Assembly: GCA_016840425.1 (NCBI GenBank)
Contig: JAEOSI010000013.1
Location: 1 to 21,228 of the forward strand
Direction: 5' to 3'
From: Candidatus Wukongarchaeum yapensis
Lineage (GTDB): Archaea; Asgardarchaeota; Wukongarchaeia; Wukongarchaeales; Wukongarchaeaceae
Length of the DNA stretch: 21,228 bases
This document shows positions 15,417 to 20,467 of this stretch, one piece after another (position 1 is the stretch's first letter; each line of letters starts with the position of its first letter). The position numbers were made by a program, and so were the translations under genes. The notes under the pieces were generated by a model. It was given only the letters and a program-made list of their open reading frames with translations. It was not told the origin of the DNA and did not search any database.

Positions 15417-16289
15417 TTAGGTTTGTTTTTCCCATGCTTTGTCATATTCTTTGCTTAAGAATTCGTCTGAAATTTTCGTATATTTTTCTGTTGTGCTGAG
15501 TCTTTGGTGGCCTAGTTGGCGTTGTATGAGTCTTATGTCCATGCCTCTTTGGAGGGAGTGTGTTGCAAAGGTGTGGCGGAGCTTGTGACAGGAAATTTTC
15601 GGGTTTAAACCTGCGAATAGAATGTATTTTTTCACGATTCTTTGCACTTCTCTCTTTGAGAGTTTTCTGTCGCGATTGCTTAAAAATAGGAATTTTGAGT
15701 CTGTGTTTTTCCTTGTTTTTAAATAGTTTTTTATGGAAGTGAGAGCTCTGGAGCTTATACACACGATCCTCGTCTTGCCCCCTTTACCCTTGATTCTTAT
15801 CGTTTTGTTTTCATAGTTTATGTCTGTAAGTTTTATATCGCAAAGTTCTTGGACCCTTATCCCCGTGTGTAGAAATGTGACAATTATTGTATAATCCCTA
15901 GCGTTTCTTTTCTGGGCTTCTTTAATAAACTTTTCAGTTTCCTTCGGGGTAAGGACTAACGGGAGGGTTTTATCAAGTTTTGGGGTACTGATTTTTTCCG
16001 TGGGATCTTTTTTAAGGTATCCCTCACTCACTAAAAAATAAAAAAAAGTTCTTAAAGAGGATATTTTTCTTGCCAAGGCAGGCTTACTATAGTTTCTGTC
16101 TTTTTTAAGATGGTTAAGAAAACGGCGAATATATTCTGTCGTGATCGCTTTTAAAGGCTTAGGCCCAATAAAACGGAAAAACAGGTTCAAATCGTACTCA
16201 TAAGCTTTTATTGTTTGAGGGCTTAAACCCTTCTCCACCTCTTTAGCTGTAAGGTACTCTTCAATTTTCTCATAAACTTTAGGATTCAT
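15417..16289 (-). CDS. Xer-family tyrosine recombinase (XerA/XerC/D-like)
   Basis: N-terminal SAM-like domain (GLSPQTIKAY) and complete catalytic set: TGIRVQEL, GKGGKTR, HKLRH, LGH, TTEKY. GGTGAGGTGG (16292-16301) precedes ATG 16289. Confidence 0.93.
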   Translation of the reverse strand: MNPKVYEKIEEYLTAKEVEKGLSPQTIKAYEYDLNLFFRFIGPKPLKAITTEYIRRFLNHLKKDRNYSKPALARKISSLRTFFYFLVSEGYLKKDPTEKISTPKLDKTLPLVLTPKETEKFIKEAQKRNARDYTIIVTFLHTGIRVQELCDIKLTDINYENKTIRIKGKGGKTRIVCISSRALTSIKNYLKTRKNTDSKFLFLSNRDRKLSKREVQRIVKKYILFAGLNPKISCHKLRHTFATHSLQRGMDIRLIQRQLGHQRLSTTEKYTKISDEFLSKEYDKAWEKQT

Positions 16290-16350
16290 TACCACCTCAC
16301 CTTTTGACCCCAAAAAAGCTTACTTTTCACAATCCCAAAATCTTTGTTTG

Positions 16351-16378: not shown

Positions 16379-16685
16379 TTACTCTTTATAAGAATTTTGT
16401 ACTTTCAAAAATAGATTAAATCTTTTAAATGTTTTCTTTAAATTTAAAGAATAGATTTCATTGAGAGTTTTTGAATAAGAGGAACTAACAACAGAAAAAT
16501 GTTGGTTAATTTACCTAAATAGGTGGCTATGCGGGTATTTTTGGTGGAGTGATTTTTTAATTAAGAGACTGGAAAAAAAGTTTTTTGATGAAAAAAACAT
16601 AGTAAAAGTTAAATTTGGCGGAAAGCTTTAAAGGAAGGATTTTAGGGGCTTATGAAGTTCTAGATAAAGTTCTTTGAGGGATTTT

Positions 16686-17513
16686 ATGGAAAAGGATATC
16701 ATAAAAATTTGGCCAGAGGAAGTTCGAAGAGAGCTGCCTACAGGAATTGAAAATTTTGACAATTATTTTAAAATTTTAAGCGGAACTTTTACTATTTTTT
16801 ATGTTTGCAATCAAACCTATAATGATATCCAAGGTGTTTTAGGCAGTTGGATAAACAATCTTTTCGATGATGAAATTGCTACCGTGGTCTCTACTTACAG
16901 TGACGTGATGACTGTTATAAGGGGTTTTATGGAAAAACAACCACACTTAGTTGAAAAATCTGCTGTTTTAACAAGGGATGGGAGAACTTCTTGGATAGAT
17001 ATGTATACTTTGAGGGGATTTAATGAAGTTGAAGCTGAAAAGGTTATGGTTAACTATTATAAAGCGTTGAAATCTTTAAACTACGATGAGAACCTTCTTT
17101 TTATGGTTAAAATGCCTGAGCGATGTCAATCTGTCAAACAATTATATGATTTTTTAAACGAAATAATGGAGAGAAATAAGGGATATCGAGGGATGAGAAT
17201 AATGGTTTTTTACGGGGATGACCTTGTGGATACTTGGGGTCCAAAGAATGTTTTGAATGTTTTGAAGACTCAAGTAAACAGGTTTGTGCACAAGTTACAA
17301 CATGCTTATGTTTACATCTTTTCCTATAAGGGACATTTACCTAAATTTCATACGTTTATTGAGAGAATGGCGGACAATATACTTCTTTGGGGCTTTGACG
17401 GAGAGAGGGAAGAGAAGTTTTTACAGATCTTAAAAACGCCTATTTTGAACAGTTTTTATGGAAAAGTTCCTTATGTCCTCAATCAAAAGGGATTGCCAGA
17501 ATTTACAGTATAA
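16686..17513 (+). CDS. KaiC/RecA-fold protein with degenerate Walker A (probable pseudo-ATPase)
   Basis: LPTGIENFD N-terminus and FIERMADNILLW...FLQILK...VPYVLNQKGL C-terminus mirror KaiC domains; no GxxxxGK[ST]. ATG 16686 follows GAGGGA. Confidence 0.7.
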   Translation: MEKDIIKIWPEEVRRELPTGIENFDNYFKILSGTFTIFYVCNQTYNDIQGVLGSWINNLFDDEIATVVSTYSDVMTVIRGFMEKQPHLVEKSAVLTRDGRTSWIDMYTLRGFNEVEAEKVMVNYYKALKSLNYDENLLFMVKMPERCQSVKQLYDFLNEIMERNKGYRGMRIMVFYGDDLVDTWGPKNVLNVLKTQVNRFVHKLQHAYVYIFSYKGHLPKFHTFIERMADNILLWGFDGEREEKFLQILKTPILNSFYGKVPYVLNQKGLPEFTV

Positions 17514-17693
17514 ATAGGTGTATAAATGTTAAAATCGTCAAAGAATAATTAAGAATGGTAATTAAGTGATTGCTAATATGCTTAAGTAAAAAAAGCATCT
17601 TATTTAGTAAGACAGAGAGAATAGATTTTAAAATTGAAAACAAGATAAAAGATGGGTTCATGCAAGTTGATGAATTTTTTGGAGTAGCTGATT

Positions 17694-18461
17694 TTGAAGG
17701 AGACATACGAGCTTCCTGTTGACCATGAGGGTGTAAATATCGTCAAAATATGTTTTTGGGGCGCAAGTCTTTCGGGGAAAACTACTGCCCTTTCTATATA
17801 TAAAACGCTTAAAACGTTGGAAAATCCTGAATCGGTTTATCAGTGGCTTAAGCTTGAGGATCCTTCTGGGAGAACCTTGTTTTTTGACCAAGCTGTTTTT
17901 TCACTAGGCAGGAGTGAAAAGACAGGGCTTCCCTACTTAAAGTATCATGTTTATACGGTGCCGGGTCAAATTCGCCATAAAGGACAGCGAAAGGTTGTTC
18001 TTGAGGGGAGTCATGGTTTAATAATTCTTCTTGATTCTTCGCTTTCTCAGTGGAATTTTAATCTTCAAGCTCTTGAAGAACTTAATGAATTGGTGGGACC
18101 TGAATTAGCCAATGGTACTCTTCCTTTTAAGCTTGTTTTGAATAAGATGGATCTTCCTCCTTCGGAGCGTATAAGCGCCATTGATGTAGGCGAGTTATTG
18201 GTGGAGGCTGGCTTAAGTGAAAAGTTAAGGGATGCCTATGCAAACATTATCGAGACTTCTTGCCTGAAAGCAACAAACGATTTAAAACGGATACTCATAC
18301 AGATAAAAAAGGAGGGATTAAGGGATAAATATAAAGATCCTAAGACCGGCCGCTGGATTCGAAGCGTTCTCCCTGTAAGCGTTCAAAGAATAATGCAACC
18401 GGTAGAAGAATTATTAAGAGAAGTTATAGTGATAGTTTTACGCAAAAATCGGGATAGGTAG
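17694..18461 (+). CDS. MglA-like small GTPase
   Basis: G1 GASLSGKTT, switch I RTLFFD, G3-equivalent YTVPGQ, G4 NKMD and G5 ETSC; TTG start after GGAGTAG. Confidence 0.88.
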   Translation: MKETYELPVDHEGVNIVKICFWGASLSGKTTALSIYKTLKTLENPESVYQWLKLEDPSGRTLFFDQAVFSLGRSEKTGLPYLKYHVYTVPGQIRHKGQRKVVLEGSHGLIILLDSSLSQWNFNLQALEELNELVGPELANGTLPFKLVLNKMDLPPSERISAIDVGELLVEAGLSEKLRDAYANIIETSCLKATNDLKRILIQIKKEGLRDKYKDPKTGRWIRSVLPVSVQRIMQPVEELLREVIVIVLRKNRDR

Positions 18462-18757
18462 AACACTATCAAGACTCATATAAAACACTCTTAATAGACA
18501 TAGATCAGAATTCATCTTCTCCCCCTTACTAGAGGTCTTTTTGCGACATAAAAATAAAATAAAACGAAACTAAAATTATTAATAACATTATGAGAGTATA
18601 TATAGATACATGATAATAAGTATTGAATAGGAAAAAAGATATTTCATCTTATAACAGCGTAATTTTGAAGATTTTTGACATCACATTTTACTTTTTATTT
18701 TAATTATTTTCTTCATGGAAATTTTGTTTCCTTGGTTTTTGGAGACGTGGCGCCTTT

Positions 18758-19810
18758 ATGAGTATTCATCTTTCGATTTGGGGTGTTAGAGGTAGTGAAA
18801 GGGAAAAATTGATTCATTTAGGCAATCTTTTTAAGACTATTATCTTTAACTTGGCAGAACTGCTTGTTGAAAAAGTTCCAGCAGAGGCTGAAAATCTTAT
18901 TTCGAACAGCTTGAAGAAGGTAGCAAAGTCTGCTTTCGTGCCAGTTCCTGGTGAAATCGTGGACTATCAAGTGAGGGAGTTTTTCCAGACTTTAGGTTGG
19001 CGTAAATGCGTTGTAGAGTTTGATAAAGAGGAGAAGAAATGGCAGATTTATTTAGGGGCTTTTAAGGATATTCCTTCCATAAACATGAAGACTGAAGGGG
19101 TTAAAAACGTGATTAAAGGTTTTGTTTTAGGCGTTTTCAGCCACTTCATAGAAGGAGAAATTGGGGCCAAGGAAATACAGAAAAAAGGGGCAATGATAGA
19201 TGTAAGCCTTGAAATTTTTAAGGAAAAAACGCCAGAGATATTAGAAACGATAGTAAAGGAAAAGGAAGTGGAAGAAGAAACATTGGAAGAAATGGCAAAG
19301 AAGTCGATATTTGAACTGCCAACTAAAGAAGATTTAATATCTATAAGAGAGATTTTGAGACCGATTCTTTCCCTCAGAGAATGCAGCAGGGAGAATTTAA
19401 ACCTTTTTTTGACCGCTTGTCGTATTGTTATAGCTGGTCCAAGATCAGGCGAACAAGCAAAAATAAAAAATCAAGATTTAGAGTTTCATGAGATAGCGAA
19501 AACTGCCATAGAGACCGATATGCCAGAGGATGTGGGCTATAATATAGGGCAAGAATTTATAAAAATGCTTGTTGAAAAGGAAGAAAAAGATCCTCACTCT
19601 TTAATAAGAGAGACTTTAAACTTAGACACTCCAGAACTTACACTAACCGTTAAATCGAAAGTCTTTCCAGAAGATAGAGAAGATATTTGTGACAGATTTA
19701 TGACAAAAATTTGGGAAGGAATACTGGAAGCAATAACTGGAGAAAAATACGTATACAAAAAAAGATCTTGCGGTGAAAGACTTTGCCTTCTCGAATTTAA
19801 AAAAGAATAA
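18758..19810 (+). CDS. Tandem V4R/Bet3(TRAPP)-like fold protein
   Basis: N-domain has FFQTLGW...KGFVLGVF. C-domain has VGYNIGQEF...C311...EGILEAITG...C338xxxxC343LLEF. Confidence 0.65.
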   Translation: MSIHLSIWGVRGSEREKLIHLGNLFKTIIFNLAELLVEKVPAEAENLISNSLKKVAKSAFVPVPGEIVDYQVREFFQTLGWRKCVVEFDKEEKKWQIYLGAFKDIPSINMKTEGVKNVIKGFVLGVFSHFIEGEIGAKEIQKKGAMIDVSLEIFKEKTPEILETIVKEKEVEEETLEEMAKKSIFELPTKEDLISIREILRPILSLRECSRENLNLFLTACRIVIAGPRSGEQAKIKNQDLEFHEIAKTAIETDMPEDVGYNIGQEFIKMLVEKEEKDPHSLIRETLNLDTPELTLTVKSKVFPEDREDICDRFMTKIWEGILEAITGEKYVYKKRSCGERLCLLEFKKE

Positions 19811-19893: not shown

Positions 19894-20418
19894 TTAATCG
19901 TGTTCCTGATCATCCGTGATTATTACGAAGGATAGTATTAGTAAGGGGTCTATTTCGTCTGTTTCTATTGTTAAACCATAACTGTCTGTTAGGCTTATCC
20001 AGGCTTTACCGACTTCTGCGATCCTTTTTTTATCAGGGCTTATGATTTTATAGTTGTGGCGTACGATATTGCCTTTTACTGTTGCTAGTTTGTTTCCTTC
20101 ATTGTCATGAAGCCAGTATTTGGATCCGAAAATTTTTAGCAGCTTTCTTTTTATTTTACCTCTTTCCTGACCAGTGACATCATAGATCGTATATGTTCGT
20201 CTCAGTGCACTAAACATTTTACCGGTGATTCTCCCAACCTCTTCGCCATCAAGGTTTTCGAACCAAAATTTTGGCCCCATGCTTATTCTTTCTTTTTTAC
20301 AGTATCCTAAAAGATTACCGGCTGTATCTTTTATTTCATAAACTCTGCGGGTTACAGAAAGGATTTTCTGCCTAATCTCATATTCTTTTAAACCAAAAAG
20401 TGGTGGCTTTTCAACCAT
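19894..20418 (-). CDS. LURP-one-related / scramblase-like (Tubby-C beta-barrel) protein
   Basis: Repeated Y/F-x-I-x-D-xx-G-xx-[LV]-G-x-[IV] hairpins, with DSYGLTI and DPLLILSFVI at the C-terminus. GAGGAGGTG lies 9 nt before ATG 20418. Confidence 0.88.
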   Translation of the reverse strand: MVEKPPLFGLKEYEIRQKILSVTRRVYEIKDTAGNLLGYCKKERISMGPKFWFENLDGEEVGRITGKMFSALRRTYTIYDVTGQERGKIKRKLLKIFGSKYWLHDNEGNKLATVKGNIVRHNYKIISPDKKRIAEVGKAWISLTDSYGLTIETDEIDPLLILSFVIITDDQEHD

Positions 20419-20467
20419 TTTAAGGAACACCTCCTCTTCTCAATCTATTATATGATTTTACTCACTA

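Follow-up and report, generated by a model that had tools for sequence, protein, structure and literature searches.

The window examined in this study is a 21,228-nucleotide stretch of DNA, contig JAEOSI010000013.1 of the Asgard archaeon Candidatus Wukongarchaeum yapensis, and corresponds to contig C133 of genome G000, a metagenome-assembled genome (MAG) of 2.16 Mb with 92% completeness. Three genes follow one another on its plus strand: ORF1 (16686-17513), coding for a putative inactivated KaiC-like protein, ORF2 (17694-18461), coding for a predicted small GTPase of the MglA type, and ORF3 (18758-19810), coding for a protein in which two domains of the Bet3/V4R superfamily are predicted. It is possible, at somewhat less than an even chance, that ORF2 and ORF3 constitute a two-gene association, in which the V4R protein would serve as a sensor or effector that binds a ligand and acts together with the GTPase. 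Conservation of all three genes as a unit is confined to the genus level, and the data lend no support to a three-part "proto-TRAPP" switch.

An earlier note on this DNA had described three co-directional genes with 180 and 296 bp between them, which was confirmed by the coordinates of the two A+T-rich spacers (17514-17693 and 18462-18757), and its assignments of the three products to a pseudo-KaiC, an MglA-like GTPase and a tandem V4R/Bet3 protein were all upheld. ORF1 encodes 275 amino acids from an ATG, with a TTG at 16674 also open, ORF2 encodes 255 amino acids from a TTG, where the homolog P0002 (90% identical) also starts, and ORF3 encodes 350 amino acids from an ATG. Homologs of each of them are present in other assemblies; they are therefore real genes and not chance ORFs. 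No significant family was found for any of the three in Pfam or NCBIfam scans, and all three proteins belong to known superfamilies, as members that are new or have been little described.

In the proposed explanation, the three genes would be promoted separately and only those of the GTPase and the V4R protein would plausibly belong together. The middle gene would encode a working MglA-type GTP switch of a long-form clade, which seems confined to Asgard families of the Heimdall group. The V4R protein would be a ligand-binding partner in the GTPase pathway, either as a sensor biasing the switch or as an effector reading its GTP state, and not a TRAPP-type exchange factor. The KaiC-like protein would stand outside the obligate switch.

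The long GTPase and the tandem V4R-fold protein

ORF2 is predicted to be an MglA-type small GTPase with intact catalytic residues. In a phmmer search against the PDB, MglA chains were matched with E-values from 1.8e-17 to 2e-15 (6h17, 5ymx, 6hjh, and 3t12), followed by Arl6 as the next family (E 0.03). The P-loop GASLSGKT occupies residues 23-30, of which G23, G28, K29, and T30 are invariant in an alignment of its relatives (A4). The switch I motif is RTLFFD, in which Arg60-Thr61 aligns with the MglA sequence "drtlffd" and is invariant in A4; this arginine corresponds to R53 of M. xanthus. The G3 motif TVPGQ at residues 88-92, ending with Gln92, is identical to that of MglA in the HMMER alignment, and both proteins differ from the usual G3 in having a threonine in place of the aspartate, together with the catalytic glutamine. 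Finally, NKMD at residues 150-153 is invariant across the relatives in A4. ORF2 thus has the P-loop, the RTLFFD motif with the intrinsic arginine, TVPGQ and NKxD in common with MglA of Myxococcus xanthus and Thermus thermophilus (6h17, 5ymx, and 3t12), and possesses every residue needed for intrinsic hydrolysis of the MglA type.

In contrast to MglA, ORF2 is about 55 residues longer. It carries an insertion of about 35 amino acids between G5 and the last helix, which is specific to its clade, as well as a longer beta2-beta3 hairpin. This long clade (about 250 amino acids) is monophyletic with a support of 100/100 against canonical MglA-like proteins and was found in 86 of 400 Asgard genomes, all of which belong to the families designated here as f1, f2, f7-f13, f30, and f31. 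MglA usually, though not obligatorily, has a cognate Roadblock (MglB) gene adjacent to it, whereas ORF2 has none. The lack of MglB pointed out in the earlier note was borne out by a search with PF03259, which detected nine Roadblock genes (mglB-like genes) genome-wide but not one on contig C133, and so none in the window. The canonical short MglA-like gene of G000, on contig C125, differs in that it sits between two Roadblock genes, and its product falls outside the 100/100 clade of ORF2.

ORF3 is, at the level of the modeled fold, a tandem V4R/Bet3 protein. The AlphaFold2 (AF2) model built from a 32-sequence alignment reached a predicted local distance difference test score (pLDDT) of 78.7 and consists of two domains (approximately 14-155 and 190-349) with an acidic disordered linker in between. 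For the N-terminal domain, VIA-align gave a Z score of 12.4 to TPC6 (3kxc_C; root-mean-square deviation 3.0, 127 aligned) and 12.2 to Bet3-TPC6B, with a range of 12.4-10.9 for TRAPPC6/Trs33/Bet3, followed by 10.5 to the V4R protein MJ1460 (2oso) and 9.6 to Thor-TRAPPC3 (7yh3). This domain also resembles BcsD and the MopR/PoxR sensors, and the Z scores span 12.4-9.5 overall. The C-terminal domain reached a Z score of 8.1 to H-NOX, and Foldseek matched ORF3 to BcsD and TRAPPC3 with E-values from 1.7e-4 to 3e-3. Since the Z scores to TRAPP subunits, V4R, BcsD, and MopR/PoxR lie within about two units of each other, the fold singles out no TRAPP subunit over sensor V4R domains.

By sequence, the profile of the ORF3 family matched MJ1460 of M. 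jannaschii (PDB 2osd) with an E-value of 0.013. ORF3 itself lies below the gathering thresholds of Pfam V4R (PF02830) and TRAPP (PF04051) and gave no match, and weak V4R matches were obtained for just 4 of the 32 family members (best E 0.029). Direct searches with ORF3, both word-indexed and exhaustive, returned relatives with at least 87% identity and one with 22%. With the profile, a single-copy family of proteins of 345-410 amino acids was found in 64 of the 400 Asgard genomes (f1, f7-f11, and f13). ORF3 is a fast-evolving member of this Asgard family of two-domain Bet3/V4R-fold proteins: on the V4R tree its branch measures 4.6 substitutions per site, and the placement of f1 is unresolved. 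In the V4R/Bet3 superfamily a conserved cysteine cluster, the Zn site, is located towards the C-terminal end of the domain. The C-terminal domain contains four cysteines in most members (C...CDF...G.W.G...C.xEF). ORF3 keeps C311 and C343 and gains C338, a deletion spans the first two cysteines of the family, and its first domain is free of cysteines.

Proteins with the Bet3/V4R fold typically bind small hydrophobic ligands. Both domains of ORF3 are predicted to adopt the fold of the V4R/Bet3/H-NOX/BcsD superfamily, as represented by MJ1460 (2osd/2oso), Thor-TRAPPC3 (7yh2/7yh3), and the phenol sensors PoxR and MopR. ORF3 differs from these in combining two domains in one chain that scores below the Pfam thresholds for V4R and TRAPP, in the deletion of two of the four family cysteines, in its very long branch and in that no longin partners were found in the searches described below. 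V4R/TRAPPC3-fold proteins have already been described in Asgard archaea and a ligand-binding role was proposed for them; a Heimdall TRAPPC3-longin fusion was described as well (Tran et al., 2024; PMC10933270).

Linkage of the two genes across Asgard families

The GTPase and V4R genes are adjacent and co-directional, with a gap of 296-300 bp, in both genomes of genus g1 and on the metagenome contig L135 (89% identity). Furthermore, the long GTPase and the V4R gene lie 1.9 kb apart in f9 (G042 and G043) and 1.1-4.1 kb apart in f10 (G045, G046, G047, and G055), with varying orientation. In the GTPase tree, f1 is placed inside a subclade with a support of 100/99 together with f2, f11, f12, f13, f30, and f31, while f9 and f10 are outside; the proximity therefore occurs on two distant branches. 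No gene other than these two is common to the neighborhoods of f1 and f9/f10, and the pantoate-kinase-like (PoK) and phosphopantothenate synthetase (PPS) genes, which in f9/f10 lie between the two genes or beside them, are located on another contig in G000. In addition, every family with the tandem V4R family also has the long GTPase. Conservation of the neighborhood across Asgard genomes, as the earlier note had envisaged it, was consequently seen loosely for the GTPase-V4R pair (f9 and f10) and failed for the trio beyond the genus.

Of the 11 V4R-type genes of G000, 3 have a small-GTPase or Roadblock gene at a distance of no more than 1.5 kb, compared with a background of 4.5% (P 0.011; P 0.07 without the gene of the window). 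On contig C127 (1-2841), a 408-amino-acid protein, which has the best Pfam TRAPP (Bet3) score of the genome (24.6 bits, just below the cut-off) as well as a V4R match, is encoded divergently to two small Ras/Arf-like GTPase genes (1440-2054 and 2287-2841), so that V4R and GTPase genes adjoin a second time in this genome. On contig C116 (1015-4884), a 519-amino-acid protein with two Pfam V4R domains is encoded on the same strand as two Roadblock genes, at a distance of 1.2 kb. In f9, the tandem-V4R gene abuts, in divergent orientation, an operon of Roadblock, canonical MglA-like and Roadblock genes (L084:8052-10921, L085:5906-8776, and L111:6147-9273), with the long GTPase 1.9 kb off on the other side.

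Several observations weigh against an association of the two genes. Genomes of f7, f8, f11, and f13 have both without linkage, and in the complete genome G016 a distance of 1.17 Mb separates them. In f2, f12, f30, and f31 the long GTPase is found but not the V4R family; 17 further metagenome loci of the long clade (at least 4 kb) had no V4R gene in the flank, and a metagenome scan with the GTPase alignment gave no further lineage carrying the pair. Since f9 and f10 group as sisters in the V4R tree (93/86), they count as one event, so that together with f1 there are at most two independent observations of proximity. The V4R gene is tightly joined to the PoK and PPS genes in f9/f10 (gaps of 3-31 bp), and in f8 it is followed by genes for a 154-156-amino-acid protein and a geranylgeranyl reductase. 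In f11, f12, and contigs named Hodarchaeales, which together with f2 hold the nearest relatives of the GTPase, its gene comes third, behind those of a gelsolin-repeat protein and a Ras-family GTPase, and the intervals measure 8-24 bp. Finally, the 296-bp spacer itself, with a T-run and a conserved A/T block, suggests separate transcription.

The two spacers are 87-88% identical between G000 and its sister species G399 (88% for 17514-17693) and are as conserved as coding DNA; the 110 nucleotides before ORF3 are nearly invariant. A GGAG sequence precedes the TTG start of ORF2 by 11 and the ATG of ORF3 by 10 nucleotides. After the stop codon of the GTPase gene a T5 run is located at 18538-18542, and the A/T block upstream of ORF3 lies at about 18693-18711. 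Separate promoters for the genes, including one of its own for ORF3, are likely from these sequences. No Rfam family or tRNA was found in or near either spacer. A scan with a sigma-70 promoter and terminator model, which is not relevant to archaea, remained at the level of shuffled sequence. In X20, the sole RNA library with the region, short contigs from a relative with 95-99% identity cover 18112-18506 and 18795-19049 and no contig bridges a spacer, with DNA carry-over being possible.

An alternative regarded as equally likely is that there is no functional module at all: three unrelated genes would have come together through rearrangement in a genome that is small and streamlined, f9/f10 would display an inherited V4R-PoK-PPS synteny, and the likeness of f1 would be a coincidence or a remnant of an ancestral gene order. 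It, too, falls short of an even chance. It is in line with the genome size of 2.16 Mb, compared with 3-4 Mb in relatives, with the genus-level conservation of the trio, with the different and tighter neighbors that each of the three families has elsewhere, with the lack of linkage in at least four families holding both genes and with the long spacers, which have conserved upstream blocks of their own. The sister relationship of f9 and f10 points in the same direction, as does the report that Asgard GTPase genes are mostly not located in operons with putative regulators, namely Roadblock, longin or TRAPPC3-like genes (Tran et al., 2024; PMC10933270). However, the probability of the two genes lying within 5 kb by chance was estimated by us, for a genome of 3.5 Mb, at about 0.3% per lineage, or about 2-3% for an unrelated lineage over about eight family-level lineages. 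In addition, the neighborhoods of f1 and f9/f10 have just these two genes in common, and V4R-type genes of G000 lie near GTPase or Roadblock genes above background.

The V4R and GTPase families were also found in other surroundings. In f10, the tandem-V4R gene heads a cluster with genes for a GHMP kinase (pantoate-kinase-like) and a phosphopantothenate synthetase (PPS_PS), at L019:6001-8832, L080:6063-8885, L083:478-3269, and L113:1920-4745, which hints at a link of the V4R-fold protein to coenzyme A synthesis. The operons with the long GTPase as third gene are located at L146:4427-6717, L148:4294-6717, L117:4487-6782, L115:6069-8406, L119:4096-6757, L001:3954-6756, and L003:4391-6750, and the same partners occur near the long GTPase in f2, where they are inverted. 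The gelsolin-repeat protein has 316-390 amino acids (PF00626, 22.3 bits in L146) and the Ras-family GTPase about 180 (PF00071, E 6e-48), which suggests a cytoskeleton-linked double-GTPase module. The gene for a protein of 320-340 amino acids upstream of distant GTPase orthologs had been considered as a possible ORF3-like gene and turned out to be that of the gelsolin-repeat protein.

The KaiC-like protein and the comparison with TRAPP

ORF1 appears to be an inactivated KaiC-like protein with a putative RecA-type fold. An alignment of 23 ORF1-family sequences (A7) was compared with seven KaiC-like proteins of the same genome by hhalign, which gave a probability of 92.3% (E 5.5e-7) over 221 columns, with positions 13-270 aligned to 6-238 of 246 and thus nearly full length; the controls, A7 against the GTPase and V4R alignments, reached 0.3-0.4%. 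In a whole-proteome search, the hidden Markov model (HMM) of the KaiC-like proteins detected the ORF1 paralog on contig C121 directly (E 2.1e-9), and language-model features placed ORF1 near the DnaB_C/KaiC/RAD55 clusters with a score of 0.90. The Walker A motif GxxGxGK[ST] is absent in ORF1. The aligned site reads YVCNQTYND and holds no Gly-Lys-Thr/Ser; ORF1 is therefore considered an inactivated KaiC-like protein that cannot be an ATPase, for want of a P-loop. In the family, this site carries the motif V-x-N-Q-T-[YF]-x-D, with V40, N42, Q43, T44, and D47 invariant in the 23 sequences.

Pfam PF06745 did not match ORF1 at E-values up to 10, and six-frame searches of the genome with the Pfam KaiC and V4R models at the same threshold gave no match touching the window. 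The family profile gave chance-level matches or none against PDB sequences. The AF2 model of ORF1, built from 14 sequences, had a pLDDT of 38 and was unusable for a fold search, because of which the fold is deduced from the sequence; helices and strands alternate in the prediction in a manner that would suit an alpha/beta fold of the RecA type. Inactivated KaiC-like domains ("iKaiC") are a recognized component of archaeal signalling proteins (PMC5847659, citing Makarova, Galperin and Koonin, 2017). ORF1 resembles these in its KaiC/RecA-type core with a C-terminal "ADxhhxL...K" block and in the loss of the ATPase motifs. It differs in being a stand-alone protein of 275 amino acids, in the invariant NQT replacing the P-loop and in belonging to a family confined to two Asgard families.

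This family is small, with 29 clusters in a word-indexed search. Among the 400 Asgard genomes it is limited to f1, with three to four paralogs per genome, and f14, with a single copy in 18 of 19 genomes; it was absent from every other family with the long GTPase. Neither the long GTPase nor the tandem V4R family was found in f14, and in the sequenced flanks of the f14 homologs genes for a GTPase, a V4R or a Roadblock protein are missing. G000 has four paralogs, ORF1 among them. The paralogs and their orthologs form tandem pairs between genes for a DegT-type aminotransferase and a Glycos_transf_4 protein, beside glycosylation genes (L016:4977-6825, L017:6001-7862, and G000:C83:3039-4888), and no V4R gene is present within their sequenced flanks. 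The trio is kept only in G399 and on L135, with 85-90% protein identity. Most likely, ORF1 is a lineage-specific paralog that recently landed beside the GTPase gene and that the switch does not require.

A narrower form of the two-gene reading assumes that the long GTPase of Heimdall-group Asgard archaea is directly controlled by the tandem Bet3/V4R protein, as a ligand-gated exchange factor or effector, in a Roadblock-free two-gene switch at this locus that would be an archaeal forerunner of the Bet3-GTPase coupling in TRAPP. We regard this as improbable. The complex prediction for the GTPase and ORF3, with alignments for both, scored 0.00, which is evidence neither way. The core of TRAPP that binds the GTPase is formed by the longins Bet5 and Trs23, with Bet3-fold subunits on its flanks (PMC10933270). 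Pfam-level searches for longin and Sybindin domains (PF04099 and PF13774) gave no match in the window, and in the genome as a whole nothing exceeded the cut-off. The fold of the N-terminal domain of ORF3 is like that of TRAPPC6/Trs33/Bet3, but the window differs from TRAPP in lacking the longin subunits. Because no longin/Sybindin gene was detected, ORF3 is below threshold in Pfam TRAPP and V4R, and the structural matches are non-discriminating, the role as a TRAPP-like guanine nucleotide exchange factor (GEF), which the earlier note had raised as a possibility, is not supported.

The same note had included ORF1 in the switch: the Bet3/V4R protein would be the TRAPP-like exchange factor and the dead KaiC-like protein would scaffold or regulate, the two replacing MglB. 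In its favor, the three folds agree with the proposal, the N-terminal domain of ORF3 has its best structural matches in the TRAPP subunits TPC6/Trs33/Bet3 (Z 12.4-10.9), the window has no Roadblock gene and the trio is retained in G399 and L135. Nevertheless, this three-part arrangement is clearly unlikely, as the ORF1 family is missing from the other families with the GTPase and is present in f14 without either partner, while three further paralogs exist elsewhere in the genome, those beside glycosylation genes included. Moreover, the GTPase-binding core of TRAPP is a longin pair with no counterpart in the window, the Z scores do not single out TRAPP, the GTPase retains the arginine and glutamine of the MglA type and the nine Roadblock genes of the genome could act in trans.

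Alternatively, the KaiC-like and V4R proteins could be the real pair, a split version of the KaiC-V4R fusions that are common in archaea, with the GTPase gene merely in between. The linkage of KaiC and V4R in archaea noted earlier is present in the same genome, in a fusion of 416 amino acids (G000:C117:257-1507; KaiC HMM E 5.6e-76, C-terminal V4R), and iKaiC domains are known from archaeal signalling proteins (PMC5847659). Yet the explanation has little probability, since the ORF1 family (f1 and f14) and the V4R family (f1, f7-f11, and f13) do not co-occur outside f1, the flanks of the ORF1 paralogs and f14 homologs hold no V4R gene and the Rosetta-stone logic applies at the superfamily level only.

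Neighboring genes and significance

Upstream of ORF1, a gene for an XerA/XerC-type tyrosine recombinase (15417-16313, minus strand; Phage_integrase E 3e-42) is encoded divergently across an A+T-rich spacer of 372 bp and is kept in G399. No further sign of a mobile element was seen, and the G+C content is like that of the rest of the window. Downstream of ORF3 and convergent with it, a LURP-one/scramblase-like gene (19894-20430, minus strand) encodes 178 amino acids with a Pfam LOR match (E 1.4e-10) and a weak Scramblase match, and is 91% conserved in G399. LOR has a tubby-like fold, known chiefly from eukaryotes. This gene was considered as the counterpart of the 154-amino-acid partner of the V4R family in f8, and the comparison gave no match; a homolog of that partner was not found in G000. 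An endonuclease III gene is also located downstream of ORF3 in convergent orientation.

With this analysis three families are defined which are "hypothetical" in standard annotation, namely the long MglA-like clade, the tandem V4R family and the KaiC-like family without a P-loop and with the invariant NQT motif. An association of small GTPases with Bet3/V4R-fold proteins in Asgard archaea has been anticipated in the literature, while a long MglA-like GTPase beside a tandem V4R protein without a Roadblock gene would be new, a claim which is weakly supported. If the GTPase and the V4R protein do not interact, the locus is an ordinary one. For the long GTPase itself, the operon with a gelsolin-domain protein and a Ras-like GTPase, which holds it in most lineages, points towards the cytoskeleton. 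Matching the small GTPases of Asgard archaea to their regulators is an open problem, and a GTPase that is repeatedly found near one family of Bet3/V4R-fold proteins offers a concrete and cheap pair for biochemistry.

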